Assembly: GCA_016432445.1 (NCBI GenBank)
Contig: CP066689.1
Span: forward strand, 960,001-992,000
Direction of reading: 5' to 3'
DNA length: 32,000 nt
Origin: Candidatus Saccharimonadota bacterium
Lineage (GTDB): Bacteria > Patescibacteriota > Microgenomatia > UBA1406 > GWC2-37-13
The notes beneath the pieces are model-generated. The model was given only the letters and a program-made list of their open reading frames with translations, was not told where the DNA came from and searched no databases. Below, in pieces: positions 1,016 to 31,164 of the stretch. Each line of letters begins with the position of its first letter. Position 1 is the first letter of the stretch. The position numbers were made by a program, and so were the translations under genes.

Positions 1016-1465
1016 TTAAGTTAGTTCAGCTTTCGTCAATTCTCTTTTTATATCTTCTGGTAATTTTCCGGTAACTTCCTGTGATAGTTTATTTAATGGA
1101 TGTTTTATTCCTTCAAGACTTATGGCCATTACTTCGCTTAACCATTCTGTTGCATGTTCCACTTTATCTAAACCGTATTTTTTAATTAACTCTTCAGCTA
1201 ACTCGGGAGTTATTTTAAGATCAGGATCTTTAATCGTACTATTTAAAATATCTTCAGGTTTCAACTCTTGCTTTGTTCCTCCGTTTGTATTTAATGTTTT
1301 GCCTAAATCATTAAAAACCATCGGTCTAAACACTGATCTTAAGACATTTTTACGGCTGTCATCTAACGGATCTCCACTAGGAAGACCTCTCTTAAATACA
1401 GGTACCCTGTCTAGAGTAATATCTACCATCTGCCCCAGTGATAAGTTTTTTACTTCGGTCTCCAT
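1016..1465 (-). CDS. hypothetical protein, last gene of the HD-protein operon
   Basis: 149-aa ORF whose start overlaps the stop of the upstream gene by 16 nt (translational coupling). No family recognised. Confidence 0.7.
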   Translation of the reverse strand: METEVKNLSLGQMVDITLDRVPVFKRGLPSGDPLDDSRKNVLRSVFRPMVFNDLGKTLNTNGGTKQELKPEDILNSTIKDPDLKITPELAEELIKKYGLDKVEHATEWLSEVMAISLEGIKHPLNKLSQEVTGKLPEDIKRELTKAELT

Positions 1466-4740: not shown

Positions 4741-4814
4741 CCACAGGAACACTTTGTAGTAGATCTTTGATCTTAGATGTTAGATCTTAGATTAAGACAG
4801 AGTGTTCCTGTTGG
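4741..4814. repeat. inverted repeat enclosing a TCTTAGA-type heptamer array
   Basis: Arms CCACAGGAACACT (4741-4753) and AGTGTTCCTGTTGG (4801-4814): 11 bp perfect, then a bulge, then 2 bp. The loop holds six 7-nt units: tagtaga, tctttga, tcttaga, tgttaga, tcttaga, ttaagac (4757-4798). Confidence 0.7.
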
Positions 4815-5526
4815 AACAAATAATTTTACAGCTGGCATAAACCAGCAGAAAGGCCATCTCATGTATGCAGATCTGGAAAAAGTAACCGTACAAGCCTGTT
4901 ATGGCATCGCCAGGACATTGGGATTCGTGGAAGAAGCCTTACCTGAGGATATTATCTCTCTACCCGACTTCAGGAAATGGCTGAAAGACCATTTTGGACA
5001 TCTAGCAGATCTCGAAATCTTCGGAAATGGAATTCCTAGCAACGCCTCCAAATCCTGGAGCTGGAACTTGGAAGATGATCAGAAAAACATATCCCGAGCG
5101 CTAATCAACTATACGTATCCTCGCCTGGATTTTCCACTCATGACCCTCATGACCCCAGGTGAAAAAATAGAAATTAATGTCTATTTGCAAAATTCACCTG
5201 AACGTGGGCCTCGCGCTGGAATATCCATCGATTATCTGACCTGCACCCCAAATAATCGCTTGCACCTACTAGATGTTTTCAAGGTCGAACTTGAATTTTG
5301 GGCGGACGGATTCAAGCCTGTGTGCACAATCTTATTTCCAGGTCTTGATCCCAGGGATCCTCACCAACGTCAGGCACTTGCAAAAATACTCTTAATTTTG
5401 CGTGCTATTCCCTCAGAAGATACTCGAACAACAGATGTTTTGGAGGTCCTGGGAAGCCGGCCTGAAACTATGGCGGGCTTTCTGGCTCTCTGCCTACTTG
5501 AAGAAGATCCATTGATCACTCAGTGA
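4777..5526 (+). CDS. hypothetical protein in a G+C-richer island
   Basis: 249-aa ORF. The ATG at 4777 lies inside the heptamer array, so ATG 4861 (MYADLEKV...) is an equally plausible start. Composition is visibly richer in G+C than neighbouring genes. No family recognised. Confidence 0.6.
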   Translation: MLDLRLRQSVPVGTNNFTAGINQQKGHLMYADLEKVTVQACYGIARTLGFVEEALPEDIISLPDFRKWLKDHFGHLADLEIFGNGIPSNASKSWSWNLEDDQKNISRALINYTYPRLDFPLMTLMTPGEKIEINVYLQNSPERGPRAGISIDYLTCTPNNRLHLLDVFKVELEFWADGFKPVCTILFPGLDPRDPHQRQALAKILLILRAIPSEDTRTTDVLEVLGSRPETMAGFLALCLLEEDPLITQ

Positions 5527-6135: not shown

Positions 6136-8916
6136 TCACTTTCTAAACCAATCAATAATCATCTCAAGGATAGTTCGTTGAGTTGAGGTTCCTTCAACCT
6201 CTGAAGACGAGCTTGGAGATGGACTAATCTGAGTATTGCCGCTTGGTGTGCTAACCATATCCCAATCATCAGGCTTTTTTGTCGGCTGCATTTTTTTCTC
6301 ATACTCCTCTACTCCTTTAGCAAAGCAAGACTGCATAACATCTCCTGAAATCGGAGTTGTGAGCATCTCCCCTGCCATTAATTTTCTAAACACTTCAGCA
6401 CCCAAAGCTTGTCTCAAACAATCTTTACTTTCTTGAGGCATTTGGTTGACATTTTGTAAAAGCTTGCCTATATCGCCTTGAATGGTTGGGCCGGAAGTTT
6501 GAAATTCTTTAATCACCACATTCTTACAGGCTTCGGCATTGGCCGGATTCTGGCAGAAAGTTTTACATTCTTCTACCGTGGTACAGACAGCGCCGCCTCC
6601 GGTTTTTTTTGGTTTTCCCTCAATATTCGGAGGCTCGATCCCTGCTCTTTCCATAAACGCATCGCACTCATCTTTGTGAGTATTGCAATAAGCGTCGCAC
6701 TCAGTCTTGCTTTTACATCCACCGGGACCGCCATTTTGCAAAAACGGAGCCACTTTTTGTGCTTCTTTCGCTTCTTCCTCGGAAATAAGTCCTGCGCCTC
6801 TTGCGAAACTTATACACTCAGCGCTTCTTGAGGAATCAGAACAATAGGATTGACATTGTTTTGGGGTTTTGCATTCCCCTGGAGTTTGGGAACCAGATGA
6901 CAAAATACTAAGCACTTTTTTGGATTTGGAAAGCTCATCGGCACTCATCAAATTATTCTTTTCAGCATAATCTAAACAAACATTCAGATTTTCTGGTTTA
7001 TCACAATAGCTAGCGCAGTTTTCTTGACTGTTACAACCTCCCGGCCCGCTTTTGACTTGAGTTGCATTTCTAATCCTTTCGGCCTCTTCGCGAGCCATAA
7101 ATCCGTTTTTAACCGCGTACTCATTGCAAGCGCTAACATTTTCAGGCATATCGCAGTATTTTTGACAATCGGCTTTATCTTTACAGCTGCCAAGTTCTGC
7201 AATCGGATAACTTAAGTTGTCAATAACAGATTGTTTTTTATCAACCGGAGTCGGCGTTGGAGAAGTGATATTCGGCATCGGCGTATTTGTGGGAACAGTG
7301 GTTGCGGTTGGTAATACAGGAGTTAAAGTTGGAGTTGGGGTAAGAACCGGAAGATCGCCGAATTTTGTGTTGTTACCACCATTACTCTCTTCCAAAACCT
7401 CGGGTCTGTTGACCGTGGCCCAATAAGTAACCGCAGAATATGGAGGCTGGCCAAAAGCAGTCAGAGTCATTGTTTCCCCGGATTCAAGTACTGTATCTGG
7501 AGGAATATTTAATTTTGTTTTACTAACTTCTCCGCCTCCACTGTCTCGCCAAATAAACTGAGCTGTAACATAACCTCCCCTAGCGTTAGCAAAGACCGCT
7601 CTCGTTGCCCTTTCGTTATTTTTAATCTTCATTGTTGGCGCCCGAGTTTTTGCATCAAAAGATAAACTTTCTATTGTTAAATCCGGCAAAGGCGAGGTGG
7701 TTGGGGTTGGGGTGGCAGTTGGAATTGGAATTCGCATCATCGGAAGAGAGTTATTTGCAAGTGTTCTTTCTACAAGATTATCTGGTTCAACATTTGCCTG
7801 AAAGGAAACCATATTGGCTGATAAAGAAGGAAGCCTTACTGTCATTGATTGCGCAGGGCTCAATTCCCGTTGAAAGTATCTTAAGTATTGCTGCGAACAG
7901 TTCCTGATGTATTGATTATTAGTATCACGGCAATGAATTGCGACTTTTACTGAAGGAAAGTTAACAAATATTGCTGAATACTCTCCTATATTGGAAACTA
8001 CTACTTCCGGCTCACCATTGATAATGGTCGCGCTATCAATCTTTAAATCAACCATTGGTATTCGAGTTGGCGTTGGCGTTGGAGTGGCAGTCGGCACGAT
8101 GCAGGTTACTTCGGCCGCTTGAGACGGAGGCGATTCACTCCTATGATCGGATGATCTCCAAGTATATTGAGCTCTAATCTTAACATTAGGAAGAATACGA
8201 TCAGTAACCATAGAAGTATTCGGTGTCTCACGGTAAACGAAAGCGGGGCCTGTAGCTTTGTCAAATGCGAAAAAGTAATAGTTCCATGCTGAAGGCTGAC
8301 TCGACCAACGCCAATTTATAGAAAAAAAACCAGTTTCAGGATTGTAAGGGCCGCAGGTTCCTGTTGGAGCTTGAGGTCGGGAAAGAGCTATAGTAGGCCA
8401 AAGAGTCGGGGTTATAGTTGGCGTTGGTGTTAGAGACGGAGTTAAAGTCGGAGTTGGCGTGTATGTTGGTGAACGCGTTGGGGTGGGTTGTTGAGTGGGG
8501 GTTGGCTGCGAACTGCTACAGGTAATCGTTGAAGTATCTGACCAAGGTGAAAGATTGGTGTAATCGGTGGTCGAACGGAAACGTCCTGAAATTAGCCTAT
8601 CAGCTGGTATGTTATAAACTCGAAACGAATTACCCATAGTAATGGGGCCACCAATCCATTGATTGGCATACCAAGTATTAGTTGCTTGGTCAAAAACTTG
8701 AAGCTGATAGTCTATGATGCCATCTTGGTAAGTAGACATAAGCCACCAAGTCATAAATTCCCAATTTCCCTGATTATTCTTAACATATTGACATAGTGCT
8801 TGCGGCGCCGGAGGTTTGCCAAGAACCGGAGTTGGTGAAACAGCGTTGACGATACTGCTGTTTCTTATAAAAAGCAAAGAAAAAAAGACGATAATAATTA
8901 TCGGTATTTTTTTCAT
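6136..8916 (-). CDS. secreted modular adhesin-like protein (signal peptide, PT linkers, CARDB-like modules, five 4-Cys repeats)
   Basis: 926-aa ORF. N-terminal MKKIPIIIIVFFSLLFIRNSSIVNA. PT-rich linkers. Two modules ending in D/E..E..NN-like strings (VEPDNLVERTLANN, VNRPEVLEESNGGNN) typical of CARDB. C-terminal Cys repeats. Confidence 0.85.
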   Translation of the reverse strand: MKKIPIIIIVFFSLLFIRNSSIVNAVSPTPVLGKPPAPQALCQYVKNNQGNWEFMTWWLMSTYQDGIIDYQLQVFDQATNTWYANQWIGGPITMGNSFRVYNIPADRLISGRFRSTTDYTNLSPWSDTSTITCSSSQPTPTQQPTPTRSPTYTPTPTLTPSLTPTPTITPTLWPTIALSRPQAPTGTCGPYNPETGFFSINWRWSSQPSAWNYYFFAFDKATGPAFVYRETPNTSMVTDRILPNVKIRAQYTWRSSDHRSESPPSQAAEVTCIVPTATPTPTPTRIPMVDLKIDSATIINGEPEVVVSNIGEYSAIFVNFPSVKVAIHCRDTNNQYIRNCSQQYLRYFQRELSPAQSMTVRLPSLSANMVSFQANVEPDNLVERTLANNSLPMMRIPIPTATPTPTTSPLPDLTIESLSFDAKTRAPTMKIKNNERATRAVFANARGGYVTAQFIWRDSGGGEVSKTKLNIPPDTVLESGETMTLTAFGQPPYSAVTYWATVNRPEVLEESNGGNNTKFGDLPVLTPTPTLTPVLPTATTVPTNTPMPNITSPTPTPVDKKQSVIDNLSYPIAELGSCKDKADCQKYCDMPENVSACNEYAVKNGFMAREEAERIRNATQVKSGPGGCNSQENCASYCDKPENLNVCLDYAEKNNLMSADELSKSKKVLSILSSGSQTPGECKTPKQCQSYCSDSSRSAECISFARGAGLISEEEAKEAQKVAPFLQNGGPGGCKSKTECDAYCNTHKDECDAFMERAGIEPPNIEGKPKKTGGGAVCTTVEECKTFCQNPANAEACKNVVIKEFQTSGPTIQGDIGKLLQNVNQMPQESKDCLRQALGAEVFRKLMAGEMLTTPISGDVMQSCFAKGVEEYEKKMQPTKKPDDWDMVSTPSGNTQISPSPSSSSEVEGTSTQRTILEMIIDWFRK
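6520..7195 (-). repeat. five tandem protein-level repeats of a 4-Cys motif
   Basis: The five repeats are CKDKADCQKYCDMPENVSAC, CNSQENCASYCDKPENLNVC, CKTPKQCQSYCSDSSRSAEC, CKSKTECDAYCNTHKDEC and CTTVEECKTFCQNPANAEAC. Most are followed by an acidic helix-like segment (..EEA..). Confidence 0.75.
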
Positions 8917-10356: not shown

Positions 10357-11748
10357 TTAGGACAAAGACTCATTTGCTAATTTTTTAACTTCGGGAATCG
10401 CCATAACTGCTACTTTTGGCTTAGGAGGAAACATTTCATAATATCTGCTACCTGAAGTCTGCAGTGGTCTATTCCTTAATGAATCTTGTGAATGGTTAAT
10501 CTTAACAATAGCCTCTGGAGTTAAGTTTACTCTCATTTCATACGAAGAAGCAGCTACAGATTGTCCTTGTAATACTTCCCAGAAAGTAACAGTAACACCA
10601 GGTATTACTGTAGGAAATGTCATCTCGCCTATTCGATGGTGAGATTTTAAAGCCTCTTGATGAAGTAAAATAAGAGGATCAGTAGGTTCTCCGTTAACAT
10701 TGGCTATTACACCTAATTTATCTATTAAAGTCTTCATCACGAAATCTCCATTTCCAGGAGAAGTTTGAATCGACAGTGGATATCTGCGATGCCCGCCATA
10801 TTTACGGTCATATCCAAAAAGATAATCAACTACTTCTTTAGCAATATCTTTATCAGTTGTTCCATCTTTTCTCCTTTTATTTCTGTACTGAAACTCCCTT
10901 CGAATATCTTCTTCAAAATACGCCAGTGTGTTACGTTTACTGGCTAACCTGTCACCTATGATATCGCACTCGCTTCTTCTATAAGGATCCTCTAGATAAA
11001 CTTGACCAACCGCACCTATTAAATCATTGATTGCCCCATCTATCCGAACTAGAGGATTTGAAGACTCTCCCGTATCTACCTCATCAGTTGAGTGTTTCAT
11101 ACTCATATCTACGGCTTCAAAAAACATTGTTTGATCTTTCTGATCTCCTACCTTAAAACTGACACAAGGAATGGATCTGCTGAAAAATGACTCTGCAGTG
11201 CGATGAGCTACCTCATTAACTACTTCTTGATAGTCTGTATTTAGATTATTTAGTTTCCAGTTTTCTATTAGAGCGTTAGGATCCCCCGGTTCTTTTTGAT
11301 CAAAAGAAGGCAATTTCGGCCGATTGACTGGGTTTAAACTATCAAGTTGTCTTCTGAAATAATATTCGTTAGCATCATAACTTGGATAAAAAGCTAACCC
11401 AATTATTCCATGTTCTGCCGATACTCCAAGATACATTTTTAAATCCGCCGTATCTGTTCGGGCGGCACTATACATTCCTTCTGTATTAAGGGGAAGTTTT
11501 TTTATAATCGCCGTATTCAGAATAACCAGATCACAGTCTGCGTCTCCTTTTCTACTTTTTCCTCTGGCTTTTGTTTCACGAATGGCAGTACAAAAACTTC
11601 TGCCCTGACTTTCTGCTTTTTCTTCCTCACCCAGCAAAAATTTAATTAACCCCTTGTTGTTTTCTGGAGATTTTGGTTTTTCAAGAAATGTCTTAATCTC
11701 TTTAGAGAAAGGAGAAATAGACTTAGTTTGTCCTGGTTCAGGTTCCAT
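10357..11748 (-). CDS. orphan 463-aa cytoplasmic protein, no family recognised
   Basis: Long ORF. The track start (TTG 11784) is actually the -35 hexamer of its promoter. ATG 11748 (MEPEPGQ...) sits 6 nt after a TATCAT box. Confidence 0.8.
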   Translation of the reverse strand: MEPEPGQTKSISPFSKEIKTFLEKPKSPENNKGLIKFLLGEEEKAESQGRSFCTAIRETKARGKSRKGDADCDLVILNTAIIKKLPLNTEGMYSAARTDTADLKMYLGVSAEHGIIGLAFYPSYDANEYYFRRQLDSLNPVNRPKLPSFDQKEPGDPNALIENWKLNNLNTDYQEVVNEVAHRTAESFFSRSIPCVSFKVGDQKDQTMFFEAVDMSMKHSTDEVDTGESSNPLVRIDGAINDLIGAVGQVYLEDPYRRSECDIIGDRLASKRNTLAYFEEDIRREFQYRNKRRKDGTTDKDIAKEVVDYLFGYDRKYGGHRRYPLSIQTSPGNGDFVMKTLIDKLGVIANVNGEPTDPLILLHQEALKSHHRIGEMTFPTVIPGVTVTFWEVLQGQSVAASSYEMRVNLTPEAIVKINHSQDSLRNRPLQTSGSRYYEMFPPKPKVAVMAIPEVKKLANESLS

Positions 11749-11754
11749 GAGTCT

Positions 11755-11784
11755 ATGATATATAAAATTTATAGTCTTTGTCAA
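11755..11784 (-). promoter_or_regulatory. sigma70-like promoter, leaderless layout
   Basis: Minus strand: TTGACA (11784-11779), 18-nt spacer, TATCAT (11760-11755), 6 nt, ATG 11748. Confidence 0.55.
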
Positions 11785-16059: not shown

Positions 16060-16689
16060 TTAAAGCGCTGGAGTAGCTGAGACTGTAGCGGTTGGGACAG
16101 CGCTGGTTGAAGCTGATTTTTGTTTACAGATTAACCAATCCCGGGCCGTACAACCTTTACCTATTTTTGTCTTAATTTTATTACAATCCGTTTCATCACA
16201 GGTTTGAACCGTTGATGCGTCATTTTGAGGGAGAACTAACGTAGACATAGGTGAAGGTCTAGTAATTGTTGTTGGCTTTGCCACAGGAGCTTGAGTTTTT
16301 TCTGTTCCTTTGGTCGTAAATGTCCAAGGCACCCCGCCATTATCATATTTTTGATCAGCAATTCTTATCTGGAAATAATAAGTTGTAGCCGGAGAGAGAA
16401 GAGTCAGATCAACAATATGGCTTTTGGTTTTTTGAGGTTCCGGAGCAAAAAAATTAAGGGCCGTCGGAGAGGTACCATATTCAATAACTCCTTGTGTTTC
16501 CTCACCTGTAGACCAGGACACTTTAACGCTGTTTTGAGATAAATCTGATACAATGACATCACGCGGAGCTATATCGCTTGCTTTCGTAAGAGTTCCTTGA
16601 AGTAGCTTAAAACCCATAACCAGCACAAAAATGCCTATAACACTACCTATTATTATTGAAGCTATCCTAACTAAAGTATGCTGATTCAT
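16060..16689 (-). CDS. membrane-anchored fibronectin type III domain protein
   Basis: N-terminal TM helix IASIIIGSVIGIFVLVMGF. FN3-like VSDLSQNSVKVSWSTGEETQGVIEYGTSP...ATTYYFQIRI. The start overlaps the upstream stop (ATGA). Confidence 0.75.
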   Translation of the reverse strand: MNQHTLVRIASIIIGSVIGIFVLVMGFKLLQGTLTKASDIAPRDVIVSDLSQNSVKVSWSTGEETQGVIEYGTSPTALNFFAPEPQKTKSHIVDLTLLSPATTYYFQIRIADQKYDNGGVPWTFTTKGTEKTQAPVAKPTTITRPSPMSTLVLPQNDASTVQTCDETDCNKIKTKIGKGCTARDWLICKQKSASTSAVPTATVSATPAL

Positions 16690-17387
16690 AAGAGTTTAAA
16701 TCCTATGCCAATTAAAAATAATAATGTTCCAGCCGCAATAAAAATGGGGAGATTATTTTCTGTGATTCCTGATCTTGGCAGTTGAGAGACTGCCGTTGGA
16801 GCGGCAGTAGCATAAGTATTTGATGAAGAGGCAAGTGTGGGAGTGGCTGTTGGGTTGGAAGTATTACCGGCGCCTACAGTAACTGCTGATGTTCCATTAC
16901 TGGCGCAAAGGATAAGATCAGTACCGTTTAGATCATTTTTGGTAATATGTGAACCAGTGGCTGGACCGCAGGTAAAGCTCAAGTTAGCAGTACCATTTTT
17001 CAAGGCCTTAAATACGACTGTCGCTAAAGTACCGCTTCCTGACTTTGAAGTGGCAACATCATCAACTAACCCAACTACATAGACTGTACCGCCGGTCATA
17101 GTAGGATTGGTGACGGTTGTGAATATTGTACCGTTAGTGACTCCTTGTGGCTCGAGAACTGTTTGATCGTAAGTTATCACTGCGTCAACGCCTAAGTATT
17201 GATCGGTTGAAAGAGCATCAATTTTAACAGCTACCTCAAATGTTTGACCGGCAGTAGTAGTAACTGCGGCTGGATCAAACTTTAGTGCAGCCGCAAAAAC
17301 ATTTTTAAGCTGTGGTACCACAAAAAAAACTGCCAATAAGATTACTATCTGGAAAAAAATCCTTTTTATTTGCATTACATCTATCAT
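16686..17387 (-). CDS. cohesin-domain surface protein with an LPxSG-type C-terminal sorting signal
   Basis: Signal/TM segment, then the cohesin-like LKFDPAAVTTTAGQTFEVAVKIDAL...GVDAVITYDQTVLEP...TLATVVFKALKNGTANLSF. LPRSG (codons 16781-16767) is followed by a hydrophobic helix and a K-containing tail. Confidence 0.75.
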   Translation of the reverse strand: MIDVMQIKRIFFQIVILLAVFFVVPQLKNVFAAALKFDPAAVTTTAGQTFEVAVKIDALSTDQYLGVDAVITYDQTVLEPQGVTNGTIFTTVTNPTMTGGTVYVVGLVDDVATSKSGSGTLATVVFKALKNGTANLSFTCGPATGSHITKNDLNGTDLILCASNGTSAVTVGAGNTSNPTATPTLASSSNTYATAAPTAVSQLPRSGITENNLPIFIAAGTLLFLIGIGFKLL

Positions 17388-21322: not shown

Positions 21323-21931
21323 TTACTTAACATCAACCGTTATCTCAACTCCATTCACAGTTCCCAATACATCATTATTTTTATCATCAATTAAATTTGA
21401 ATCTTTTTTACTGCCGGGCAAAAATTCAATCTCAAAACTTGCTTTACCGGATTTTAATGCCTTAAATGTCAGTTCGGAAATAACCGTATTTTGAAAAGTT
21501 ACAGTAGAGGTGACACTTATTTTTTTTATACCAGTTAAGCTAAGTTTGCCATTATCATTTTGGGCAAAAACCTGAAAATCACTAAGCAAATTTTTTTGAC
21601 TTACATAACTTACAACGCTGGGATCATATTTAACAACTACATCATAACCGGTGATAGAACTGTTACTGGAATCAGCTGAAACATTAAGATAAATTGTTTC
21701 TCCAGCAACTAAAGGTTTTTTCGATGGATTAGGCAATAATGTTAAAGAGCCTTTGACAAGAGCAATTGAAGGCGCAACAGAAGGAGCAATACTTGTTGAA
21801 ACCGCTCCTTCATTTTTTACTAAGTTTTTCTTGTATATGAAAAAGGCTACGGCTATTAATAAAATAACTAGCAGAATAGGAAAAATTATTACAATCGGGA
21901 ATGGTTTTTTGGTTTCAGTTTGATTTTCCAT
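21323..21931 (-). CDS. membrane-anchored cohesin-like domain protein
   Basis: N-terminal TM helix PFPIVIIFPILLVILLIAVAFFIY. Cohesin-like ITGYDVVVKYDPSVVSYVS...VISELTFKALKSGKASFEIEF. Confidence 0.7.
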   Translation of the reverse strand: MENQTETKKPFPIVIIFPILLVILLIAVAFFIYKKNLVKNEGAVSTSIAPSVAPSIALVKGSLTLLPNPSKKPLVAGETIYLNVSADSSNSSITGYDVVVKYDPSVVSYVSQKNLLSDFQVFAQNDNGKLSLTGIKKISVTSTVTFQNTVISELTFKALKSGKASFEIEFLPGSKKDSNLIDDKNNDVLGTVNGVEITVDVK

Positions 21932-21954: not shown

Positions 21955-23142
21955 TTACTCTCCTTCATCAACTTTAATAGATAAAGCACTAATAATTAAA
22001 GAGTAATCAGCAGAGTTAATTATGCCGTCAAGATTAACATCAGATGAGTTTAAGATATTAATATCGCTTTTGCCTAAATTGTTCCTGATAAGAGACAAGT
22101 CGTTAGAGTTTACAACCCCATCCTGACCTCCCTCTCCCGGCAAATCTCCTACAAATAGTAAGACACCAATTAAATTTAAATTATTTTCTCCAGGTACTAA
22201 ATTAATAATATTTCCTTTATCGCATTGATAAATCCCAGGTGACGTTTCTTTAGGTTCTAACTCACATATTTTCTTTTGCGTATGTTTTGGCCCTTTTACT
22301 AATAAATAGTATCCTCCACCTGCTAGAGCATTAAATGATGTCGTCCCACTCCAAACACCATTGTTGTCTGAAGTAAATTCAACAGGGTTTCCAATGACAT
22401 TGGTGACAGAACTTCCGCCTAATGCTACTTTAACTACCATTTTATTGAACTGATCTTCCGGTTTGCTATTTATCCCCTGAAATTTAAGCTTTAAGTTTAG
22501 CTTAATATTACCGTTCATGGGCGTAGTAGTTAATAAAGACTGAGCATTGATATTGGCACCTCCGCCTTCAGCTACGGGTACTTCTGAAAGATTATAATCT
22601 GCATTTATTTTATAAAATACATCTCCGCTTGGACTGTGAGTAATTATTGATGGATCATAGGAATTAGACACAAAAGTCAGCGTAATAACCTCTGCTTCCT
22701 CCGTTTTTGTAAGAATCTGACCCTCAGATTTTTGAATCTCCCCTTGAACATAAACAGCCCCCCACTCATTAATGACTGCTAAATTAGCTTTTGTATCACC
22801 TAAACCATTACTTACCACTCCTAGTTTATACTCAATATCCTTTAACTGAACTTTTGCTTTGTCAAAGTTTACTTTAAAAGAGTAGCCTCTGGTAGTAATA
22901 TCTATTGAAGGTTTTGCTTTTACTACGACTGTAAACTCTTGTTTAGGCGGAGCAGTTATTATCACTGGCGTAAATGATAAAACTACTGATTCTCCTGAAG
23001 CCTTCGTTGTTTTTTGAACATCTTTTTCCAAAAAAACATACCTCATCATCACCAATAAAACAGATAAACTGAAAAATAAAATAACTCCCAGTTTAATATA
23101 TATTCCCTTGTGGCTTTTTTTAAAGTTTTGATCGTCTTCCAT
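21955..23142 (-). CDS. membrane-anchored protein with a cohesin-like domain and a C-terminal dockerin
   Basis: TM helix near the N-terminus. Cohesin-like FTVVVKAKP...YSFKVNFDKAKVQLKDIEYK...VITLTFVS. C-terminal GDLPGEGGQDGVVNSNDLSLIRNNL...SDVNLDGIINSADYSLIISAL is a duplicated Ca-loop dockerin pattern. Confidence 0.8.
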   Translation of the reverse strand: MEDDQNFKKSHKGIYIKLGVILFFSLSVLLVMMRYVFLEKDVQKTTKASGESVVLSFTPVIITAPPKQEFTVVVKAKPSIDITTRGYSFKVNFDKAKVQLKDIEYKLGVVSNGLGDTKANLAVINEWGAVYVQGEIQKSEGQILTKTEEAEVITLTFVSNSYDPSIITHSPSGDVFYKINADYNLSEVPVAEGGGANINAQSLLTTTPMNGNIKLNLKLKFQGINSKPEDQFNKMVVKVALGGSSVTNVIGNPVEFTSDNNGVWSGTTSFNALAGGGYYLLVKGPKHTQKKICELEPKETSPGIYQCDKGNIINLVPGENNLNLIGVLLFVGDLPGEGGQDGVVNSNDLSLIRNNLGKSDINILNSSDVNLDGIINSADYSLIISALSIKVDEGE

Positions 23143-23143
23143 T

Positions 23144-24154
23144 TTATGGTCTTAATGAACGAATAATTACGGAGCGGTCATTCACTCCCACCTCACCATC
23201 TCCATTGAAATCAACGTTAACTGTCTGAGGAATCTTTCCTCCATTGACTACTGAAACATAATAAAAATAATCAAGATCATTTACTCTACCATTTCCGTCA
23301 GCGTCACCTCTAGTTCGTAAAGATGATCTGCACCATCCTGTTTTTTGCTCGTTAGTAGGCGTCGAGTTAAACATCGAGACAGAAAGAACGCACTTTATCG
23401 GATTGGAATAATTAACATCTGAATATTTATCAAATAAGCAAGCGCTCGTACACGTTCCTTCAGTTAAACTTGGGGAATTACAACCGCAGCTTGGATTTGG
23501 AGTTGGAGAAGGAGTTGCTGTAGCTGTTGGAGTAGGTGTCCTTGTAGGTGTCGGCATTGAAGTTGGCGTTGGCGTTGGAGTTGGAGAAGGAGTTGCTGTA
23601 GCTGTTGGAGTAGATGTCGGCGTTGAAGTTGACGAAGGAGTTGGAGTTGGAACAGAAGCACTGCAGTTAACAGTTTTAACACCTAAACGTGGATCTAAAT
23701 GATTACCGGCAGAATCATAATCTTGTCTTACACCAGAAGAATTTACATTGATAGCATAAGCTGAAACGTTTCTTTGTCTTCCGGTAAAAAAATAAGCTTT
23801 AGGGTTATATGTCCTTGATCCTTCAGTAAACGTGGTTGGTATGCTTTGAGGATTAAAGCTAAAGTTTCTATTAGTTGTCCATGCCGAACCTATAAATATA
23901 TTACCAAGAGGAATATCAGCATTAGGAGTACCAGCTGCACCTTGCTCCATCCAAAAATCAATCTGAATATTTGTAAGTGGCGAATCATCATCCACCACAT
24001 TTGAACCGATTAAAGCCGTGCAGGATGCCGCATCAAAACTACCCGTTGGTAAAGAAGAATTTGTCTGGGCGAAGCTTGGTTTGGGAATTAAAAATACTAA
24101 AGCAGATAAAAAAAATAAAATAAATAACTTTTCCCGGATACTGAGATTAAACAT
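23144..24154 (-). CDS. secreted protein with a PT linker and a C-terminal dockerin
   Basis: Signal peptide ...LVFLIPKPSFAQT. PT-rich linker. GDADGNGRVNDLDYFYYVS...VDFNGDGEVGVNDRSVIIRSL dockerin repeats. Confidence 0.8.
   Translation of the reverse strand: MFNLSIREKLFILFFLSALVFLIPKPSFAQTNSSLPTGSFDAASCTALIGSNVVDDDSPLTNIQIDFWMEQGAAGTPNADIPLGNIFIGSAWTTNRNFSFNPQSIPTTFTEGSRTYNPKAYFFTGRQRNVSAYAINVNSSGVRQDYDSAGNHLDPRLGVKTVNCSASVPTPTPSSTSTPTSTPTATATPSPTPTPTPTSMPTPTRTPTPTATATPSPTPNPSCGCNSPSLTEGTCTSACLFDKYSDVNYSNPIKCVLSVSMFNSTPTNEQKTGWCRSSLRTRGDADGNGRVNDLDYFYYVSVVNGGKIPQTVNVDFNGDGEVGVNDRSVIIRSLRP
23499..23612. repeat. 78-bp-period tandem duplication inside the PT linker
   Basis: The exact 36-mer GGAGTTGGAGAAGGAGTTGCTGTAGCTGTTGGAGTA occurs at 23499-23534 and again at 23577-23612. 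Confidence 0.8.
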
Positions 24155-24228: not shown

Positions 24229-25707
24229 TTACAGTTCGTCAACTTTAATTGAGAGAGCGGTAATTATTAAAGAATAATCTTGAGAATTAATAATATCATC
24301 AAGATTCAAGTCTGCAATCATAAGCTTTGCCGCTTCTGTTTTCCCTAAATTATTTCTGACAAGAGATAAATCATAAGAGTTTGCAATACCATCTTGACCT
24401 CCCTCTCCCGGCAAATCACCTGTCAGCTGATAAACGCCTGAAAAATCAAGATTGTTCTCGCCTTCATTCAAAACAACTGCCGCATTAGAACATCGGTAAA
24501 GCCCAGCCTGCGGCTCCTGCGGCCGTGATTCACATATCTTTTTCTGAATGTGTTTTGGTCCTTTTATTAATAAATAGTATTTATACTCAAAACCTGTGCG
24601 GGCATTAAAATTAGCTTTCCCTGAGTAAGTGCCGTCACTGTTGGGAACAAATGTTACCGGCTTGACTGGAGATCCGTCTACTGATCCTCCGGCTAAAGTA
24701 ACTTGAACTCTCATGCGGTTAAAAAGCGATGCCGGCTGTCTGTTTATTCCCTGAAACTTCAGTTTTATATTTAAAATAACGCTCTTTGACTGAGTTGGGG
24801 TAAGAGTAGGCGTTAAGGTTGGAGTTGGTGTATTTGTTGAGGTTGTAGTGGCTGTCGGTACAGGTGTCAAGGTCAAAGTTATAGTGGGAGTTAAACTCGG
24901 TGAAATGGCAGAACTTTGATACTGCAGACATTTAAATCCATTATCAAATCCATAACACCATCCCGGCTGATTATTAACTCCTAATGGACAATCGGCATTA
25001 CTGCGGCAAACCGCCCCATTGCATAGAGGAACCCATCTAAAGCGAGTATCTGATGTCGTTGGGATAGGCGCTGTGCCACAGTATCCCACAATCGGCGTAG
25101 CTGTTGGAACAGGTGTTCTTGTAGGTGTCGGCGTTGAAGTTGCAGTAGGAATAGTTGTAGAGGAAGGAATTGTTGGAGAAGGTGAAGGAGATACTACCGG
25201 CTGGCGGATATAATAAAAACTTGATCCGGCAACATAATTTTGCGAGATGTCCCATTGATTCTTGCATTGATTTCCCCCAACTAATGCATCCCCCCTCATA
25301 GCTCCAACTGCTATTCTATCGCCGCCTTGAGGTAAAGGAATTGAGTCATCAGCCGGCTGATTGGGGTCACATAAAAAAATGGCTGTGTTTCCGCTCCATC
25401 TTGAGAAAGGGCAGTTTTTTGGCCAGTTATTTTCACCAACAAAATAGCCGCAGATAATGTCCGGATAGCTGTTTGAACTAGCTTCTACCCGGCATTCAAA
25501 ACGCTGATCTTGCCCCAAAATTTCTGTTGTTACATTACTTGAGACACTATTTATACCACTAATACAAACACTAGTACTTGCTTTTGATTGATAGGTATTT
25601 TTATTTTTTTGAAGTTCGTATGAAAGTATAATGATAGCCATGCTGAAAAGGATGATTAATCCTATAATAAGAAACGGCGATATTTTTCTTTTGATTGATT
25701 CTTCCAT
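24229..25707 (-). CDS. membrane-anchored Cys-rich protein with PT linkers and a C-terminal dockerin; its C-terminal ~190 aa are paralogous to 21955-23142
   Basis: LNIKLKFQGINRQP...YYLLIKGPKHIQKKICE...GDLPGEGGQDGIANSYDLSLVRNNL...ADLNLDDIINSQDYSLIITALSIKVDE aligns by eye with the C-terminus of the 395-aa protein. Start set at ATG 25707; the track uses TTG 25713. Confidence 0.8.
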   Translation of the reverse strand: MEESIKRKISPFLIIGLIILFSMAIIILSYELQKNKNTYQSKASTSVCISGINSVSSNVTTEILGQDQRFECRVEASSNSYPDIICGYFVGENNWPKNCPFSRWSGNTAIFLCDPNQPADDSIPLPQGGDRIAVGAMRGDALVGGNQCKNQWDISQNYVAGSSFYYIRQPVVSPSPSPTIPSSTTIPTATSTPTPTRTPVPTATPIVGYCGTAPIPTTSDTRFRWVPLCNGAVCRSNADCPLGVNNQPGWCYGFDNGFKCLQYQSSAISPSLTPTITLTLTPVPTATTTSTNTPTPTLTPTLTPTQSKSVILNIKLKFQGINRQPASLFNRMRVQVTLAGGSVDGSPVKPVTFVPNSDGTYSGKANFNARTGFEYKYYLLIKGPKHIQKKICESRPQEPQAGLYRCSNAAVVLNEGENNLDFSGVYQLTGDLPGEGGQDGIANSYDLSLVRNNLGKTEAAKLMIADLNLDDIINSQDYSLIITALSIKVDEL

Positions 25708-25718
25708 AAACAATTTTC

Positions 25719-25784: not shown

Positions 25785-26000
25785 ATGTCAGACTCTAATA
25801 AACCAGTAAAAATAGCATTAAATGATCTTCCTGATCTTTTAACAATAAGAGAAGTAGCTACTCTTCTTCGTGTATCAACTCTTACTGTCAAGCGCTGGGG
25901 TAAAAAAGGCAAACTGCCGGCTATCCGTATTAACTCGCGAGGCGACCGCCGCTACAAAAAAGATGTCGTCTTAAGACTTCTTGGCGTTAACCCTGAATGA
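25785..26000 (+). CDS. MerR/excisionase-type helix-turn-helix DNA-binding protein
   Basis: 71 aa. LLTIREVATLLRVSTLTVKRWGKKGKLPAIRINSRGDRRYKKDVV is the classic HTH_17/excisionase-family pattern. Confidence 0.85.
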   Translation: MSDSNKPVKIALNDLPDLLTIREVATLLRVSTLTVKRWGKKGKLPAIRINSRGDRRYKKDVVLRLLGVNPE

Positions 26001-26087: not shown

Positions 26088-28181
26088 ATGGGAAGAGTAG
26101 AGTTTCACCTGTTTCACCGAGAAAAAACACCAACTCCTGAACTAGTTGCGGCTTTTCCTCAGCATGTAGGCTTGCAGGGACGTTTATTGCTTGGCGGAGA
26201 AGCTTTAAATCCTGTCAAAAAAGATCTGTACGAGGTGACAGAACGTACCCTAGGCAAGCTTGCCAGCCATGATTATAAACCTCTTAATAATGCTTCAACC
26301 GGAGAAAGAACAGATTATTGGGATGGAAAAGAAGGTAACATTTTCTCTGCACAAAAAAGAGCCTGGGTAGAAAACACTGTCTCAATTTTCCAGAATACAA
26401 GAGGTTTTTTTGCCAATACGGATGAAGGTAAAAAATGGACTAAATTGTACAGACGCTTTGGAATTGAAACTTTAAACGTCAAATCTAACTCTATTGAGAA
26501 TTTTTACCATAAATACTTTACCGGTCCTTATAAACAGTCAGATATTAAAAGGTTTGTTTTTGATATTTTAGCTATTTACCGAGATCCTCAAAAAAAAACT
26601 CTTGACTATAAAAAACTGCAGGAAGATCTTGAAAGCATTCAGTGGATTGCCAATATTTTTGGCGCAACTTCAGCCGAGATTATCGGCCAGCTCATTGATG
26701 CTGAGGTTAAACTTCAAACTCAGCCTAAGGATTTGATTAAAAAAGTCAATGAACAAGTAAAAACAAATGGAACCAAAGTATTAAGGATTAATCATCTTAC
26801 TCAAGATGAAGAAAGACTCCTAAGGTTCCTCTGGGAAGGTAAAGAAGAAAAACTTCCTGGGTTTAAACCATCACCTGAGTGGCAGGATCCTATCCGTCCC
26901 CGCCAACCCACTCCAACTACAGAGGATATCAATAGATTTAAAATCAAGATGAAACATGTGGATAATAAAGCAACAGGAGTAAGAGATTTTCCTGACAGCC
27001 GGGAGATTGAAGGATTAACAGATCCTTTAGTTGTAGCTTATAACTTAAAACGCTTATACCCCGCAAGATATGCTCAAGATGTTAATGCCCTTGCTGAAAA
27101 TGTGCGTCAGGAACATGTTCATTTTCGAGGCTGGCTTGAGAAAATCCATCTTCCTCCTAATTATTATGTCTCAATGATGACAAAAAACTTGAGAGAATAC
27201 GCTCATTTTTTGGAAAAGACATATCGCATAACTATTCCCGAAATTAATAATTTAAAAGTGGTTCCTTTGTATGGAAAATCTGCGGAGTTATGGAATCCGA
27301 CTGGTACTGCAGGCGGTACTTTAGCTTTTGTAAACCCTCGCTACCCTGTCATATTTTTAGACTTTGATGTTATTAATCAACATGCTTTTTATCTTGGAGA
27401 AAAAAATATAGAGGAAATGACGGCCAAAGAGTTTGGTAAGATTATAGAAAAACTATTAAACGAAATCCAGCCTCATGAGTATACTCATCTTTTGTCAGAT
27501 ATTGCCAACTGGCATCTTATCAAAGATGAAGGCACACCTCAGGAGCAAACAACTGATATTGTTATGGGTAAACTAGGCTTATTGTTATTAAAACCTACTC
27601 CTCCTAAGGTAAGCCGCGAGGAAAGATTAAACTTGAAAGAAAGAGGACGAGCTTTAATGGAAGCTCTAACAGTAGAGTTGACAGAACAGTGGCTACGTCA
27701 TGTCAAAAACCGTTCTCTTGCCTTGCCTATTTATACTCGAGAAAGACAGTTATTAAACACATTGATCAATCAGATTTCCAAAGAGCGGAATGTTTCAAGG
27801 GAAGAGGTATTAGCCAAGTTTGTTGAGGCGTACTTTAAACCTCACGGCTTCAAACACTTAGCCGATTACTTATCTGGCAAAAAAATTGATAGAACCCAGT
27901 CTAAATTTGAATATGATCAAAATAGGAAACATTTTATGCAGATTATTTATGCTCTTATAGAATATGAGTCACAAGAAGCTGAAAGAAGCGGTATTTACCC
28001 TGATTACTCAATCACAAAAAATTATATCACCGGCTCGCTTTCCTTATCTCAAAAAGCACAGATTGAGCTCTTCTTAAGAGGCTACTCAAGAGCCGCATCC
28101 GACGTCCAGCTAACCCCTCAAGCTATTGAAGAGATAAGAAATGTTATAAGCGGTAAAAAACAAGAAAAGCTTGCCGCCTAG
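26088..28181 (+). CDS. orphan 697-aa protein: shared N-terminal module plus an HExxH zincin-like C-terminal region
   Basis: Long ORF with no signal peptide. Residues ~27-210 are paralogous to the next gene. HEYTH sits at codons 27474-27488 after a beta-rich segment, with acidic helices downstream (MEALTVELTEQW). Confidence 0.85.
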   Translation: MGRVEFHLFHREKTPTPELVAAFPQHVGLQGRLLLGGEALNPVKKDLYEVTERTLGKLASHDYKPLNNASTGERTDYWDGKEGNIFSAQKRAWVENTVSIFQNTRGFFANTDEGKKWTKLYRRFGIETLNVKSNSIENFYHKYFTGPYKQSDIKRFVFDILAIYRDPQKKTLDYKKLQEDLESIQWIANIFGATSAEIIGQLIDAEVKLQTQPKDLIKKVNEQVKTNGTKVLRINHLTQDEERLLRFLWEGKEEKLPGFKPSPEWQDPIRPRQPTPTTEDINRFKIKMKHVDNKATGVRDFPDSREIEGLTDPLVVAYNLKRLYPARYAQDVNALAENVRQEHVHFRGWLEKIHLPPNYYVSMMTKNLREYAHFLEKTYRITIPEINNLKVVPLYGKSAELWNPTGTAGGTLAFVNPRYPVIFLDFDVINQHAFYLGEKNIEEMTAKEFGKIIEKLLNEIQPHEYTHLLSDIANWHLIKDEGTPQEQTTDIVMGKLGLLLLKPTPPKVSREERLNLKERGRALMEALTVELTEQWLRHVKNRSLALPIYTRERQLLNTLINQISKERNVSREEVLAKFVEAYFKPHGFKHLADYLSGKKIDRTQSKFEYDQNRKHFMQIIYALIEYESQEAERSGIYPDYSITKNYITGSLSLSQKAQIELFLRGYSRAASDVQLTPQAIEEIRNVISGKKQEKLAA

Positions 28182-28206: not shown

Positions 28207-28233
28207 TTGACTTTTTAAAAAGTGTGCTATACT
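28207..28233 (+). promoter_or_regulatory. promoter with an extended -10, leaderless layout
   Basis: TTGACT (28207-28212), 15-nt spacer, TGc-TATACT (28225-28233), 6 nt, ATG 28240. Confidence 0.5.
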
Positions 28234-28239
28234 TATCTT

Positions 28240-30615
28240 ATGTCAGGAGAAAATCCACAGCCTGTTCCAATTGAAGGTGAAAAGAATCATGAACGTATTC
28301 TTCCTTATGAACCTTTAGTTGGACTGCAAGCAAGAATACTTTTGGGTGGTGAAAACATAAACTCAAAAAACCGGAGCCTTCCTGATCTAACTTTAGATCA
28401 AATAGATCAGTCAATGGCTACTCGAGAACAAACAACTTATCGATATTTAAGCAATTCTTCAACTCAAGAAAGAAAAGAATGGTGGAAAAAACAAGGAGTT
28501 GCCAAGTTTGATGAACGATTAAAAATTTGGGTTGATAAAACAACATCTGCTTTTCAAACAGGTAAAGACTACCTTAATCAAAGTGGTTGGAAAAATGCTC
28601 TAGGAAAAATTGGCATTAGCTCTGATACTTTCTCTCAACAGGATGCATTATCTCTTTATAATGAATTCTTTACTGGAGACAATAAACAATCGAAGACTAC
28701 TATTTTTATCTCTAAAGTTATTAACGCTTACTCTCAACGGGAAACTGATGGAAAAACGGTAAGTATTGATTATCAAGCCTTAAAAAAAGATCTTCCTGCT
28801 TTTCAATGGTTAGCTGGTATGTTTGGAGGATTAGGTAAAGAAGTTGTCGTTCAACTGATTGATGCTGAGGTAAAATCACGTATTCCTCAAGAAAAAGCAA
28901 CTTTAATTAATAGAGCTAATGAGAAAGAAAAAGTTAATAATCAGGCAGTAGCCAGACTTAATAGACTTAATGACAAAGAAGTTATCCTTGCAGATTACCT
29001 TTACAAAGGCAAAAGTACAGCAGATAACAATGATCATGGAGAAAATGACGGTAAAGACAACAAACGGCCTGAAGAAATAACCGAAACTGATCCTTATAAA
29101 ATAGCTTCTGTTTTGCTTGATTATGATACTGGTAAACCTAAAGATGTAAAGGTTGATCTCTCAAAAACCTTCCCACAATTCGTTGATAAAGTAAAACAAC
29201 ACATGGAAAAAGATTCTACTCTCTTTCCGTCTGGGAAAATACCTATGGTTTTATCAGATGTATCCCGCGCTATGATTGATAAAATTGCAGAGTCCGCCAA
29301 TAAAAAAAATAAAGAGCTGGGATTTGCTCTTCGTGGTGTACTATTAACCAGTGGAGATGAGAAAGATCATAAAAATGCTCTAGTAGCTGCTTTTGCTTCC
29401 CCTTCTATGGATTTTAAAGCCGCCGAGGCAGGAGTAACTCGAGTATCACCTGAGATTGAATCTCCTAATGCAGAAACTTTAGCTCAAAATACTAGTCTTG
29501 CCAGCTATTTCCAAGAACATGGAGAAACATCTAAAGGATTCCCTATTGCTAGTATTCATATACATTATGATGCTTTAGGTGAACGTTACCGCGCTAATCC
29601 TTCAGATACTGATTTCAATCAAGATATTCCTGATATTTTGAGAAAAAACAATCTCAAACAACATATCTGGGGCGTCGCCACAAAATCAGGAGGACAGCTT
29701 TATTTAAGAGTTTGGCTGAGTAAAAGAAAAGATGACGGCACTATCACCCACGAAGAAATACCTGTTGTTTTGCAATCGCAAATTGAAGGCAACAAACCTG
29801 AGCCTGAACCAGATGAAAATGATAAGCCTGAAACATCAACTGACCCATTTCCTCAACAAAGCGAAACCGAGAAAAAAATAACCGTAAGTCACCGCAAGAA
29901 TCTTGAAGCATCTCAAGCATTCATTAATAAACTTGACGAAGCTAAAGGAACAGCAATCCAAATAGTTGCTGACAATAAAGATCCCTCTAAAAATAGATGG
30001 CGAAATAAATATGGATTTGTATTTAGCCAAAATGGTTATTATGAAGTCGCAAGTATCGGTAATGTAAGAGAAAGATACGGATTACCTATGGCCATCGAAC
30101 ATTCAGGCAATCACGCAAAGCTCGTTTTAAAAATATTTAAAGATCAAGATCAATGGAAAATGATTTATTGGAATCCATATAATAGTGATGAATTAACTGG
30201 CGATCTTAATCGCGCGCCAATAAAAATTGAGACAATTGATGGATTAGAAAAAGTAACAGATTCTTCAACAGATGAAGAAGTAAAAGGAATACTAGAAGCT
30301 AATAATTTAGCGATTGATCGGGAAATTTTAGGAAAAATCATCAGTGACCCCAATTATAACTACGATCTTACTTTCGCTGATGATCGAAATCTTACTGATT
30401 CAGTAAAAGCCGCCAAATCAGGGTATCTACAACCTCATAGTGATGCCCAAAACTGTGTTGTTTTTTGCGTTTTTAATGCTGTCTTAAGAGCCGCAGCTAA
30501 ATGGCCTGAAGGAAAGTGTCCACCTGAGTTTGCAGAGTTTCAAAAAACCGGCCGGAAAAAATTTGAAGAAGATTTTGGCATCACCATAGCTACTAGAGAA
30601 CAACTCACTTCATAA
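28240..30615 (+). CDS. orphan 791-aa protein: shared N-terminal module plus a JAB/MPN+-like domain plus a CE-clan (Ulp1-like) Cys-protease-like domain
   Basis: Start at ATG 28240 places the conserved VGLQ at residue 27, exactly as in the upstream paralog. The track's GTG 28222 lies inside the promoter. The JAB-like and CE-clan motifs are detailed in the findings. Confidence 0.85.
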   Translation: MSGENPQPVPIEGEKNHERILPYEPLVGLQARILLGGENINSKNRSLPDLTLDQIDQSMATREQTTYRYLSNSSTQERKEWWKKQGVAKFDERLKIWVDKTTSAFQTGKDYLNQSGWKNALGKIGISSDTFSQQDALSLYNEFFTGDNKQSKTTIFISKVINAYSQRETDGKTVSIDYQALKKDLPAFQWLAGMFGGLGKEVVVQLIDAEVKSRIPQEKATLINRANEKEKVNNQAVARLNRLNDKEVILADYLYKGKSTADNNDHGENDGKDNKRPEEITETDPYKIASVLLDYDTGKPKDVKVDLSKTFPQFVDKVKQHMEKDSTLFPSGKIPMVLSDVSRAMIDKIAESANKKNKELGFALRGVLLTSGDEKDHKNALVAAFASPSMDFKAAEAGVTRVSPEIESPNAETLAQNTSLASYFQEHGETSKGFPIASIHIHYDALGERYRANPSDTDFNQDIPDILRKNNLKQHIWGVATKSGGQLYLRVWLSKRKDDGTITHEEIPVVLQSQIEGNKPEPEPDENDKPETSTDPFPQQSETEKKITVSHRKNLEASQAFINKLDEAKGTAIQIVADNKDPSKNRWRNKYGFVFSQNGYYEVASIGNVRERYGLPMAIEHSGNHAKLVLKIFKDQDQWKMIYWNPYNSDELTGDLNRAPIKIETIDGLEKVTDSSTDEEVKGILEANNLAIDREILGKIISDPNYNYDLTFADDRNLTDSVKAAKSGYLQPHSDAQNCVVFCVFNAVLRAAAKWPEGKCPPEFAEFQKTGRKKFEEDFGITIATREQLTS

Positions 30616-30666: not shown

Positions 30667-31164
30667 TTAGTTAAACTTTTCTTCAGGACTGGGAGGGACT
30701 GGGGCAGGAGGCGGAGGCGGAGGTGGAGCCATATCAACTGGATTAATGGAAACCGGCTCCTCTACTTTTTGAGCTGATTGGACTTGCCCTGAGCTTGCTT
30801 GCAGTGAGCCTGTCGAATCTGCCGAAGGGGTAACTGGCAAAAGATAGGCCGTGCGGAAGTTTAAAAGAACTGCGGCAATCTCTACGTCAAGATTAGGAAT
30901 TTTATCCATGAAAAATTTATTTAGCTCATCATCCGTCGGATTTTTATCCAAAAATTCATCAAGAGCAATCTGGTCTTTTTTAGACAGAAGATTTAAAAGA
31001 TGCAGGTTGATATCTTCATTTATTTGCTTTAAAAGTTCTTCTCTAACCAGATTTTTATTTTGATCGTTGACATGAGGATCTTTTCGATCGCGAATTAAAT
31101 CATCAACATAACTTAAAAGAGCCGCCTGATCCATCGCCGCCTTATCATTTGAATTGTTTTGCAT
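30667..31164 (-). CDS. hypothetical protein with a helical core resembling the Patescibacteria DUF5663 type and a poly-proline C-terminus
   Basis: 165-aa ORF. LSKKDQIALDEFLDKNPTDDELNKFFMDKIPNLDVEIAAVLLNFRTAYL. C-terminal MAPPPPPPPAPVPPSPEEKFN. Confidence 0.65.
   Translation of the reverse strand: MQNNSNDKAAMDQAALLSYVDDLIRDRKDPHVNDQNKNLVREELLKQINEDINLHLLNLLSKKDQIALDEFLDKNPTDDELNKFFMDKIPNLDVEIAAVLLNFRTAYLLPVTPSADSTGSLQASSGQVQSAQKVEEPVSINPVDMAPPPPPPPAPVPPSPEEKFN

Follow-up and report, generated by a model that had tools for sequence, protein, structure and literature searches.

A gene in a 32,000-nucleotide stretch of a Candidatus Saccharimonadota genome (GenBank assembly GCA_016432445.1, contig CP066689.1, positions 960,001 to 992,000 of the forward strand; hereafter the window) encodes a protein that ends in a domain with an ordered set of His, Asp/Asn, Gln and Cys residues. 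We read this domain, at about residues 560-797, as the catalytic domain of a new family of permuted papain-type thiol hydrolases, most likely with an effector-type role, and put the probability of this reading at roughly two in three. NCBI lists the gene as coding for a hypothetical protein in a metagenome-assembled genome of Candidatus Roizmanbacteria (HYW86_05140). A first-pass annotation, made from the letters of the window, had labelled the C-terminus a Ulp1/SENP-like cysteine protease of clan CE and had placed a JAB-like domain in the same chain. The gene, the parts of its product and the residues at issue are as follows, all on the + strand.

28222..30615, +: whole gene, GTG start giving 797 amino acids; the NCBI start is the ATG at 28240, giving 791 amino acids.
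28279..29091, +: N-terminal module (N-dom, about residues 20-290) with the motif LVGLQARILLGGE.., common to the upstream paralog and homologs.
29092..29784, +: middle domain (about residues 291-521) with E..HxH-x12-SxxD, found otherwise only in the homolog P0017.
29785..29898, +: acidic, Pro-rich, low-complexity linker (about residues 522-559), EGNKPEPEPDENDKPETS..., read from the translation.
29899..30612, +: C-terminal His-Asp/Asn-Gln-Cys domain (residues 560-797), delimited from the HMMER family, the alignment and an AlphaFold2 (AF2) model.
30112..30114, +: His631 (CAC), invariant in 38 of 38 domain copies; opens model strand 62-72; proposed general base.
30172..30174, +: Asn651, in a column with Asp in 29 copies, Asn in 8 and Glu in 1; just past model strand 75-81; proposed His-orienting residue.
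30181..30351, +: variable insert between the β-rich and helical halves; the acid-to-Gln distance is 51-126 amino acids across the family.
30430..30432, +: Gln737, invariant in 38 of 38 copies, 8 residues ahead of Cys; proposed oxyanion-hole residue.
30454..30456, +: Cys745 (TGT), invariant in 38 of 38 copies; first turn of model helix 173-191; proposed nucleophile.

His631, Gln737 and Cys745 are the only invariant columns among the 38 domain copies, which have a mean column identity of 24%. Next to them, Pro652 directly after the acid column is kept in 37 copies and Asn744 directly before the Cys in 36. The His-to-acid spacing is mostly 20-23 residues, and Gln precedes Cys by 6 residues, the spacing of papain and Ulp1, in 27 of the 38 copies and by 8 in seven, the window protein included. 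The bare order H-x15-25-[DNE]-x40-130-Q-x5-8-C was present in 40% of 5000 shuffles of the protein, so the motif is not significant in a single sequence; within the window, two further long reading frames contain the same loose pattern. Chance as an explanation of the motif is ruled out by the conservation of His, Gln, Cys and the acid column in the homologs.

The residues that the first-pass annotation had picked out hold up. Both peptide strings that it quoted are present in the translation of the open reading frame at 28222..30615. Its His codon at 30112 is that of His631, with Asn651 exactly 20 residues on where it had estimated about 20, its Cys codon at 30454-30456 is that of Cys745, and the Asn-to-Gln spacer that it gave as about 85 amino acids measures 86. 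The order His, Asp/Asn, Gln, Cys is, as it had said, that of clan CE, and forms the conserved core of a real domain. Homologs keep the invariant His and Cys together with the acid column, and the variable insert that it had suggested between acid and Gln is seen across the family.

To define the family, residues 581-797 were compared exhaustively by HMMER with 1.84 billion representatives of 50%-identity clusters; 33 proteins besides the query passed E<=1e-3, with a best value of 1e-25. Local iteration with a hidden Markov model (HMM) gave 39 domain copies in 34 proteins. One protein, P0006, has three copies, and P0004, P0005 and P0017 have two each. Thirty-eight copies from 33 proteins were aligned with MAFFT (alignment A1), and in a second version (A2) the alignment was permuted so that the Gln..Cys half comes first. 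A word-indexed homology search retrieved only the protein itself when given its whole sequence and nothing when given A1, so the family was reached only by exhaustive HMMER. Scans of GTDB genomes with alignment A4 and with the single protein gave no matches, and no relatives were found in viral contigs. Pfam, NCBIfam, PHROGs and PADLOC scans of the protein and the family members returned nothing meaningful, and the whole protein had no match among PDB sequences. As judged by sequence comparison, the C-terminal domain is a rare but real family missing from the family databases searched. It is probably a new family of thiol-peptidase-like domains and a real enzyme.

Some homologs are stand-alone proteins of 230-310 amino acids, often starting with 'MPEG..' (P0010, P0011, P0019, P0021, P0022, P0023, P0029; L007 5767-6630), and are encoded in unrelated chromosomal contexts. 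These carry R-V-[RK]-[IVLF]-[IV] motifs about 50-60 amino acids before the domain, 5-10 amino acids after it, or both. The motif was observed 12 times against 0.9 expected from shuffles and is absent from the window protein. It could mark recognition or cleavage sites, or strand-forming segments.

With alignment A1, AF2 modelled residues 570-797 at a predicted local distance difference test score (pLDDT) of 92 and a predicted template modelling score (pTM) of 0.88; from the single sequence without an alignment the pLDDT was 44 and the model unusable. The N-terminal half of the model is β-rich (strands 55-59, 62-72, 75-81, 88-92, 100-103 and 106-109) and the C-terminal half helical (helices 114-125, 131-139, 157-163, 173-191 and 199-216). 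His is model residue 62, at the start of the second of three consecutive strands, Asn is residue 82, after the third, and Cys is residue 176, in the first turn of the long helix. Mean pLDDT is 90-96 in the 10-residue blocks that contain the catalytic residues, with 95 in the Cys block, and the variable insert is the lower-confidence part of the model at about 78-81. In the definition of a papain-like core, the Cys sits at the N-terminus of a helix, β2 bears the His and β3 a polar residue (PMC10318531). In the model the Cys lies at a helix N-terminus, the His on a strand and the polar residue by the next strand. A C-terminal position of this helix, reached by permutation, is described for the CE-type cluster (C48, C5, C55, C57, C63, C79) and for some NlpC/P60 families (PPPDE, LRAT, C92) (PMC10318531). 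The predicted domain has the layout of a papain-like core whose Cys helix comes last through permutation, as it does in clan CE.

From the conserved residues and their secondary-structure positions in the model we infer a mechanism in which Cys745, at the N-terminal end of the long helix, would be the nucleophile, and His631, which opens a β-strand, would act as general base. The residue that closes the paired strand, Asn651 here and Asp in most homologs, would orient His631, and the Gln737 side chain with the Cys745 backbone NH would form the oxyanion hole. A peptide or isopeptide bond would be hydrolysed through a thioester intermediate. The domain is one module of signal-less proteins in which N-dom is followed by varying enzyme-like modules (HExxH, metallophosphatase, or the domain with the JAB-like motif) and then by one to three copies of the domain; their genes lie in a conserved cluster, headed by an HTH_17 gene, of Roizmanbacteria-like genomes. 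Most likely they would serve as effector-type proteases with other proteins as their targets.

The domain shares several features with the Ulp1/SENP enzymes (MEROPS C48; Pfam PF02902). Beyond the order His, Asp/Asn, Gln, Cys, for which we take the Ulp1 residues to be H514, D531, Q574 and C580, both have the Gln about six residues before the Cys, the His and acid on consecutive β-strands with a third strand ahead, and the Cys opening a helix that follows the sheet in the sequence. Unlike Ulp1, with 17 residues from His to acid, the domain has 20-23; it has 'NC' at the nucleophile in place of 'DCG'; and it lacks the large helical subdomain N-terminal to the sheet. The Trp of the Ulp1/SENP 'HW' motif contributes to the Gly-Gly tunnel, and the residue after the catalytic His in our family is Ala in 33 of the 38 copies and Trp in one. 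HMM searches, which the first-pass annotation had put forward as a check, found no match to Peptidase_C48 or to C5, C55, C57 or C79, either for the protein at E<=10 or for the 38 members at E<=1. NCBIfam gave no CE-family match for the protein, and a search of all PDB sequences with the A1 profile at E<=10 brought up none from clan CE. Aligned by hhalign with a profile of only two sequences (Ulp1, matched to 1EUV, and SENP1), A1 reached a probability of 0.3% over 29 columns, and only the His..Asp hairpin was aligned. Among the 50 Foldseek matches listed from PDB and BFVD there was no Ulp1, SENP, ChlaDUB, XopD or adenain, which counts against a CE fold because a sequential alignment should tolerate the same order of elements. 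The domain has the CE residue order but cannot be placed in C48, and the Ulp1/SENP-like label is not borne out by HMM, profile-profile or fold comparison, nor by the Ala that stands in place of Trp after the His.

The claim of a JAB-like domain in the same chain concerns the middle domain. Its motif consists of the E in KELGF at 29311, H446xH448 (HIH) at 29557 and SDTD at about residues 461-464 (about 29602), and is conserved in one homolog, P0017, at 29% identity. It resembles the JAMM motif of JAB/MPN proteins, E..HxH-x7-S-xx-D, but has a spacer of 12 rather than 7. Pfam JAB did not match the protein at E<=10, and a profile of the two middle-domain sequences found no MPN or other structure among PDB sequences. 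By its motif, the middle domain is a JAMM-like candidate.

Could the protein nevertheless be a true clan-CE isopeptidase of the Ulp1/SENP/ChlaDUB type, removing ubiquitin or a ubiquitin-like (Ubl) protein, possibly alongside a JAB deconjugase in the same chain? The shared residue order and Gln-to-Cys spacing speak for it. So do the three strands, the second bearing the His and the third followed by the acid, which recall '..PIN..HWxLxxID....IxYxDS' of Ulp1, and the conservation of the E..HxH..SxxD motif in P0017. The acid-to-Gln insert is variable in the family, and bacterial CE effectors are reported to have variable regions (PMC4961225). We consider this reading quite unlikely, given that no PF02902 or other CE Pfam family was matched at the thresholds above, that the PDB and hhalign comparisons yielded nothing of the kind, that Foldseek listed no CE structure and had nothing at E<=1e-3, that Ala follows the His, that no long helical stretch precedes the sheet in the model, that neither HMM nor PDB searches back the JAB assignment, and that the window showed no Ubl or E1/E2 gene. 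A ubiquitin or Ubl target for the domain is at most a possibility. A different origin for the CE-type order would be a circular permutation within the clan-CA lineage of staphopains and C39-like peptidases, independent of Ulp1 and adenain. The top PDB matches of the A1 profile are staphopains, A-like and B (1y4h at E 0.028, 8oig at 0.059, 1cv8 at 0.12), and cover both catalytic motifs in swapped order. The permuted A2 profile matched 8oig_A at E 0.014 and brought up the papain-like effector GtgE at 0.44. In hhalign, A2 was colinear with the staphopain profile over 137 columns with Q, C, H and N/D matched, at a probability of 32% (pairwise E 5e-4) versus 0.3% for Ulp1. Staphopains (MEROPS C47, clan CA) resemble the domain in size (about 175-200 amino acids), in 'K....Q.....C' ahead of the Cys helix, and in 'GHA..V.G....I.WNPW' against 'G.HA.LVLK....W..VYDP', but their order is Q..C..H..N instead of H..N..Q..C. 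The 'G-x-HA' before and '[YW][DN]P[WMF]' after the strand likewise recall staphopain 'AGHA...IWNPW', and one family member has a weak Pfam match to Peptidase_C39 (E 0.0046). Neither the protein nor any member matched the staphopain family PF05543 (Peptidase_C47). Every one of these E-values is marginal, the staphopain profile comprises four close sequences of which two were spliced from overlapping fragments, and Foldseek gave no staphopain, even partial. The hhalign signal is that of the His..Asn hairpin, a generic papain-like feature, because permuting did not raise the score. The matches, which align on the catalytic residues and also speak for the papain-type reading that we prefer, support the presence of motifs of papain-like thiol proteases. 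Specific staphopain ancestry is not established, as permutation moved E only from 0.028-0.059 to 0.014 and left the hhalign score unchanged; descent from that lineage appears unlikely to us. The permuted NlpC/P60 families (PPPDE/DeSI C97, LRAT-like, YaeF/YiiX C92) also have the Cys helix C-terminal to the His strands (PMC10318531, PMC3142127) but had no sequence or Foldseek match with the domain. For C97, as for some other families, a complete triad is not required, and the NlpC/P60 cluster is marked by a 'GD' motif on β1 (PMC10318531). By inspection, no such 'GD' motif is evident in the domain alignment.

A non-protease thiol enzyme on a permuted papain-like scaffold, such as a YopJ- or LRAT-like acyl- or acetyltransferase, a deamidase or a transglutaminase, would account for the near-invariant 'N-C', which recalls the 'NCEHF' motif of the LRAT family as we remember it. 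Families with His before Cys do include acetyltransferases (C55 YopJ) and acyltransferases (LRAT) (PMC10318531, PMC3142127). Papain-like acetyltransferases, deamidases and transglutaminases are almost always without an oxyanion-hole element (PMC10318531), and our family has an invariant Gln 6-8 residues before the Cys, which favours a hydrolase over a YopJ/LRAT-type transferase or a deamidase. No LRAT, YopJ or PPPDE match was found in Pfam, among PDB sequences or among the Foldseek matches listed, and we regard such an activity as very unlikely. The domain might instead be an autoprocessing domain that cuts its multi-module precursor and frees the other modules without acting on foreign substrates. 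It accompanies other enzyme-like modules through low-complexity linkers, and the motifs that flank it on both sides in stand-alone homologs, in excess over shuffles, could be sites of recognition or cleavage. The window protein, however, lacks these flanking motifs, and the domain sits in two or three tandem copies in some proteins and by itself in others. It also lies at the extreme C-terminus, while in a study of polymorphic toxins the releasing peptidases reportedly sit before the toxin module. Autoprocessing is the weaker alternative to an effector-like role, and an improbable one. As for a peptidoglycan hydrolase, no signal-peptide-like or transmembrane-like hydrophobic stretch was found in any family member, in which they differ from neighbouring dockerin proteins, and such a role is unlikely.

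Several points also weigh against the permuted papain-type hydrolase that we prefer. The window protein itself has Asn instead of Asp at the acid position and carries two extra residues between Gln and Cys. No similarity to known proteases reaches significance, and the staphopain hhalign score, 28.9 over 137 columns permuted versus 29.5 over 38 unpermuted (probability 30-32%), comes almost wholly from the 38-column His..Asn hairpin. Foldseek found no papain-like or other structure in PDB and BFVD at E<=1e-3, with top TM-scores of 0.1-0.2, which leaves the papain-like assignment lacking structural confirmation. The diversity of the papain-like superfamily outruns automated structure comparison, and Foldseek's sensitivity is limited there (PMC10318531). 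The modular, signal-less architecture and fast divergence suggest an effector-like or conflict-related protease role.

The modular architecture extends to the other genes of the cluster in which the gene lies. Besides the gene itself, the cluster in the window consists of:

25785..26000, +: small HTH_17/MerR-type gene heading the cluster, 84-85% identical to the copies in loci L002 and L004.
26088..28181, +: upstream paralog of 697 amino acids, with N-dom at 30% identity (E 1e-28) and a different C-terminal part.
30667..31164, -: convergent gene for a 165-amino-acid protein with a Pro-rich tail, PPPPPPPAPVPP, in the same position in L001 (54%) and L002 (36%).

N-dom is N-terminal in at least 12 of the 33 homolog representatives and has no hydrophobic or signal-like stretch, and its profile had no match among PDB sequences. 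Among the modules joined to N-dom in other proteins are ones with conserved HExxH motifs (the upstream paralog, L1_678 and P0015) and a metallophosphatase (L2_815). HExxH motifs are conserved separately in P0008 and P0009. The upstream paralog has no Pfam match, and its HEYTH at 27474 is kept in the full-length L001 homolog and in P0015, which suggests a zincin-like metallopeptidase. In P0015 the whole of this protein type is fused to a His-Asp/Asn-Gln-Cys domain.

Parts of the cluster recur in three loci of other assemblies, L001, L002 and L004. Where its members are present, they follow the order HTH_17 gene, one to three tandem N-dom genes, convergent protein of 146-165 amino acids (L001, L002) and giant protein (L001, L002). 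The HTH_17 copies (L002 5161-5385, L004 3804-4025) code for 71-74 amino acids, and their identity of 84-85% contrasts with 25-46% for the large cluster proteins. The HTH_17 protein is a putative regulator, strikingly conserved, of fast-evolving genes. The convergent protein could be a partner, chaperone or inhibitor; that of L001 has a weak DUF5663 match. The giant proteins have 3450 amino acids with PP2C, Metallophos and FBPase_2 matches in L001 (7344-12398, -) and 1844 amino acids in L002 (12625-18159, -). Over part of its length the L001 giant shares 39% identity with the Metallophos region of the N-dom protein L2_815, suggesting an exchange of modules.

Modular conflict proteins, namely polymorphic toxins and the 'polyvalent' proteins of phages and conjugative elements, show a similar organization, with a constant N-terminal module, varying enzyme-like modules that include peptidase-like ones and a phosphatase, tandem paralogs and fast divergence. 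They differ from the cluster proteins, in which library scans and the N-dom profile search recognised no known trafficking, pre-toxin or immunity domain. The cluster also has no relatives in viral contigs, which argues against an origin as a phage 'polyvalent protein', and the locus lies in a syntenic chromosomal context.

Beyond the cluster, the window carries ordinary chromosomal genes, including those for YchF, a deformylase, L28, DsbB, a GT2, a NUDIX protein and cohesin/dockerin proteins. Cohesin-domain proteins are encoded at 16686-17387 (-) and 21323-21931 (-), and dockerin-domain proteins at 21955-23142, 23144-24154 and 24229-25713, all (-), so that the three dockerin genes lie with the two cohesin genes within about 9 kb. 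The one dockerin protein examined (24229-25713) has an N-terminal hydrophobic stretch, and the pair of cohesin and Pur_ac_phosph_N genes is syntenic in L004. These genes suggest a cohesin-dockerin surface assembly in a bacterium of the Candidate Phyla Radiation (CPR). Five further open reading frames of 249-926 amino acids have no Pfam match at E<=1e-3 (1450-3291, 3321-4292, 6136-8916 and 10357-11784, all (-), and 4777-5526 (+)). Neither N-dom nor the His-Asp/Asn-Gln-Cys domain was found in any of the five by local HMM or phmmer searches.

The genomes of CPR bacteria are very small. Many of these bacteria probably live attached to other microbes, and they are often called episymbionts. To our knowledge, almost none of their interaction proteins is known. 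The domain is a concrete candidate for one, being a rare family with a clear Cys/His/Asp-Asn/Gln signature in fast-evolving modular proteins of a conserved cluster. A bolder reading, to which we would give a minority share, is that the family is papain-like and new, possibly an independent circular permutation for which Foldseek has no structural neighbour in the PDB, confined to CPR/Roizmanbacteria-like bacteria, and that it serves as the recurrent protease-like module of signal-less multi-enzyme effectors directed at a partner cell or the own proteome under a dedicated, highly conserved HTH_17 regulator. The family also illustrates that a CE-type residue order by itself does not make a Ulp1-like deubiquitinase. 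If our reading is true, the papain-like superfamily gains a new family and perhaps a new permutation, and interest in it would grow if the fold is an independent permutation or the activity proves host-directed.

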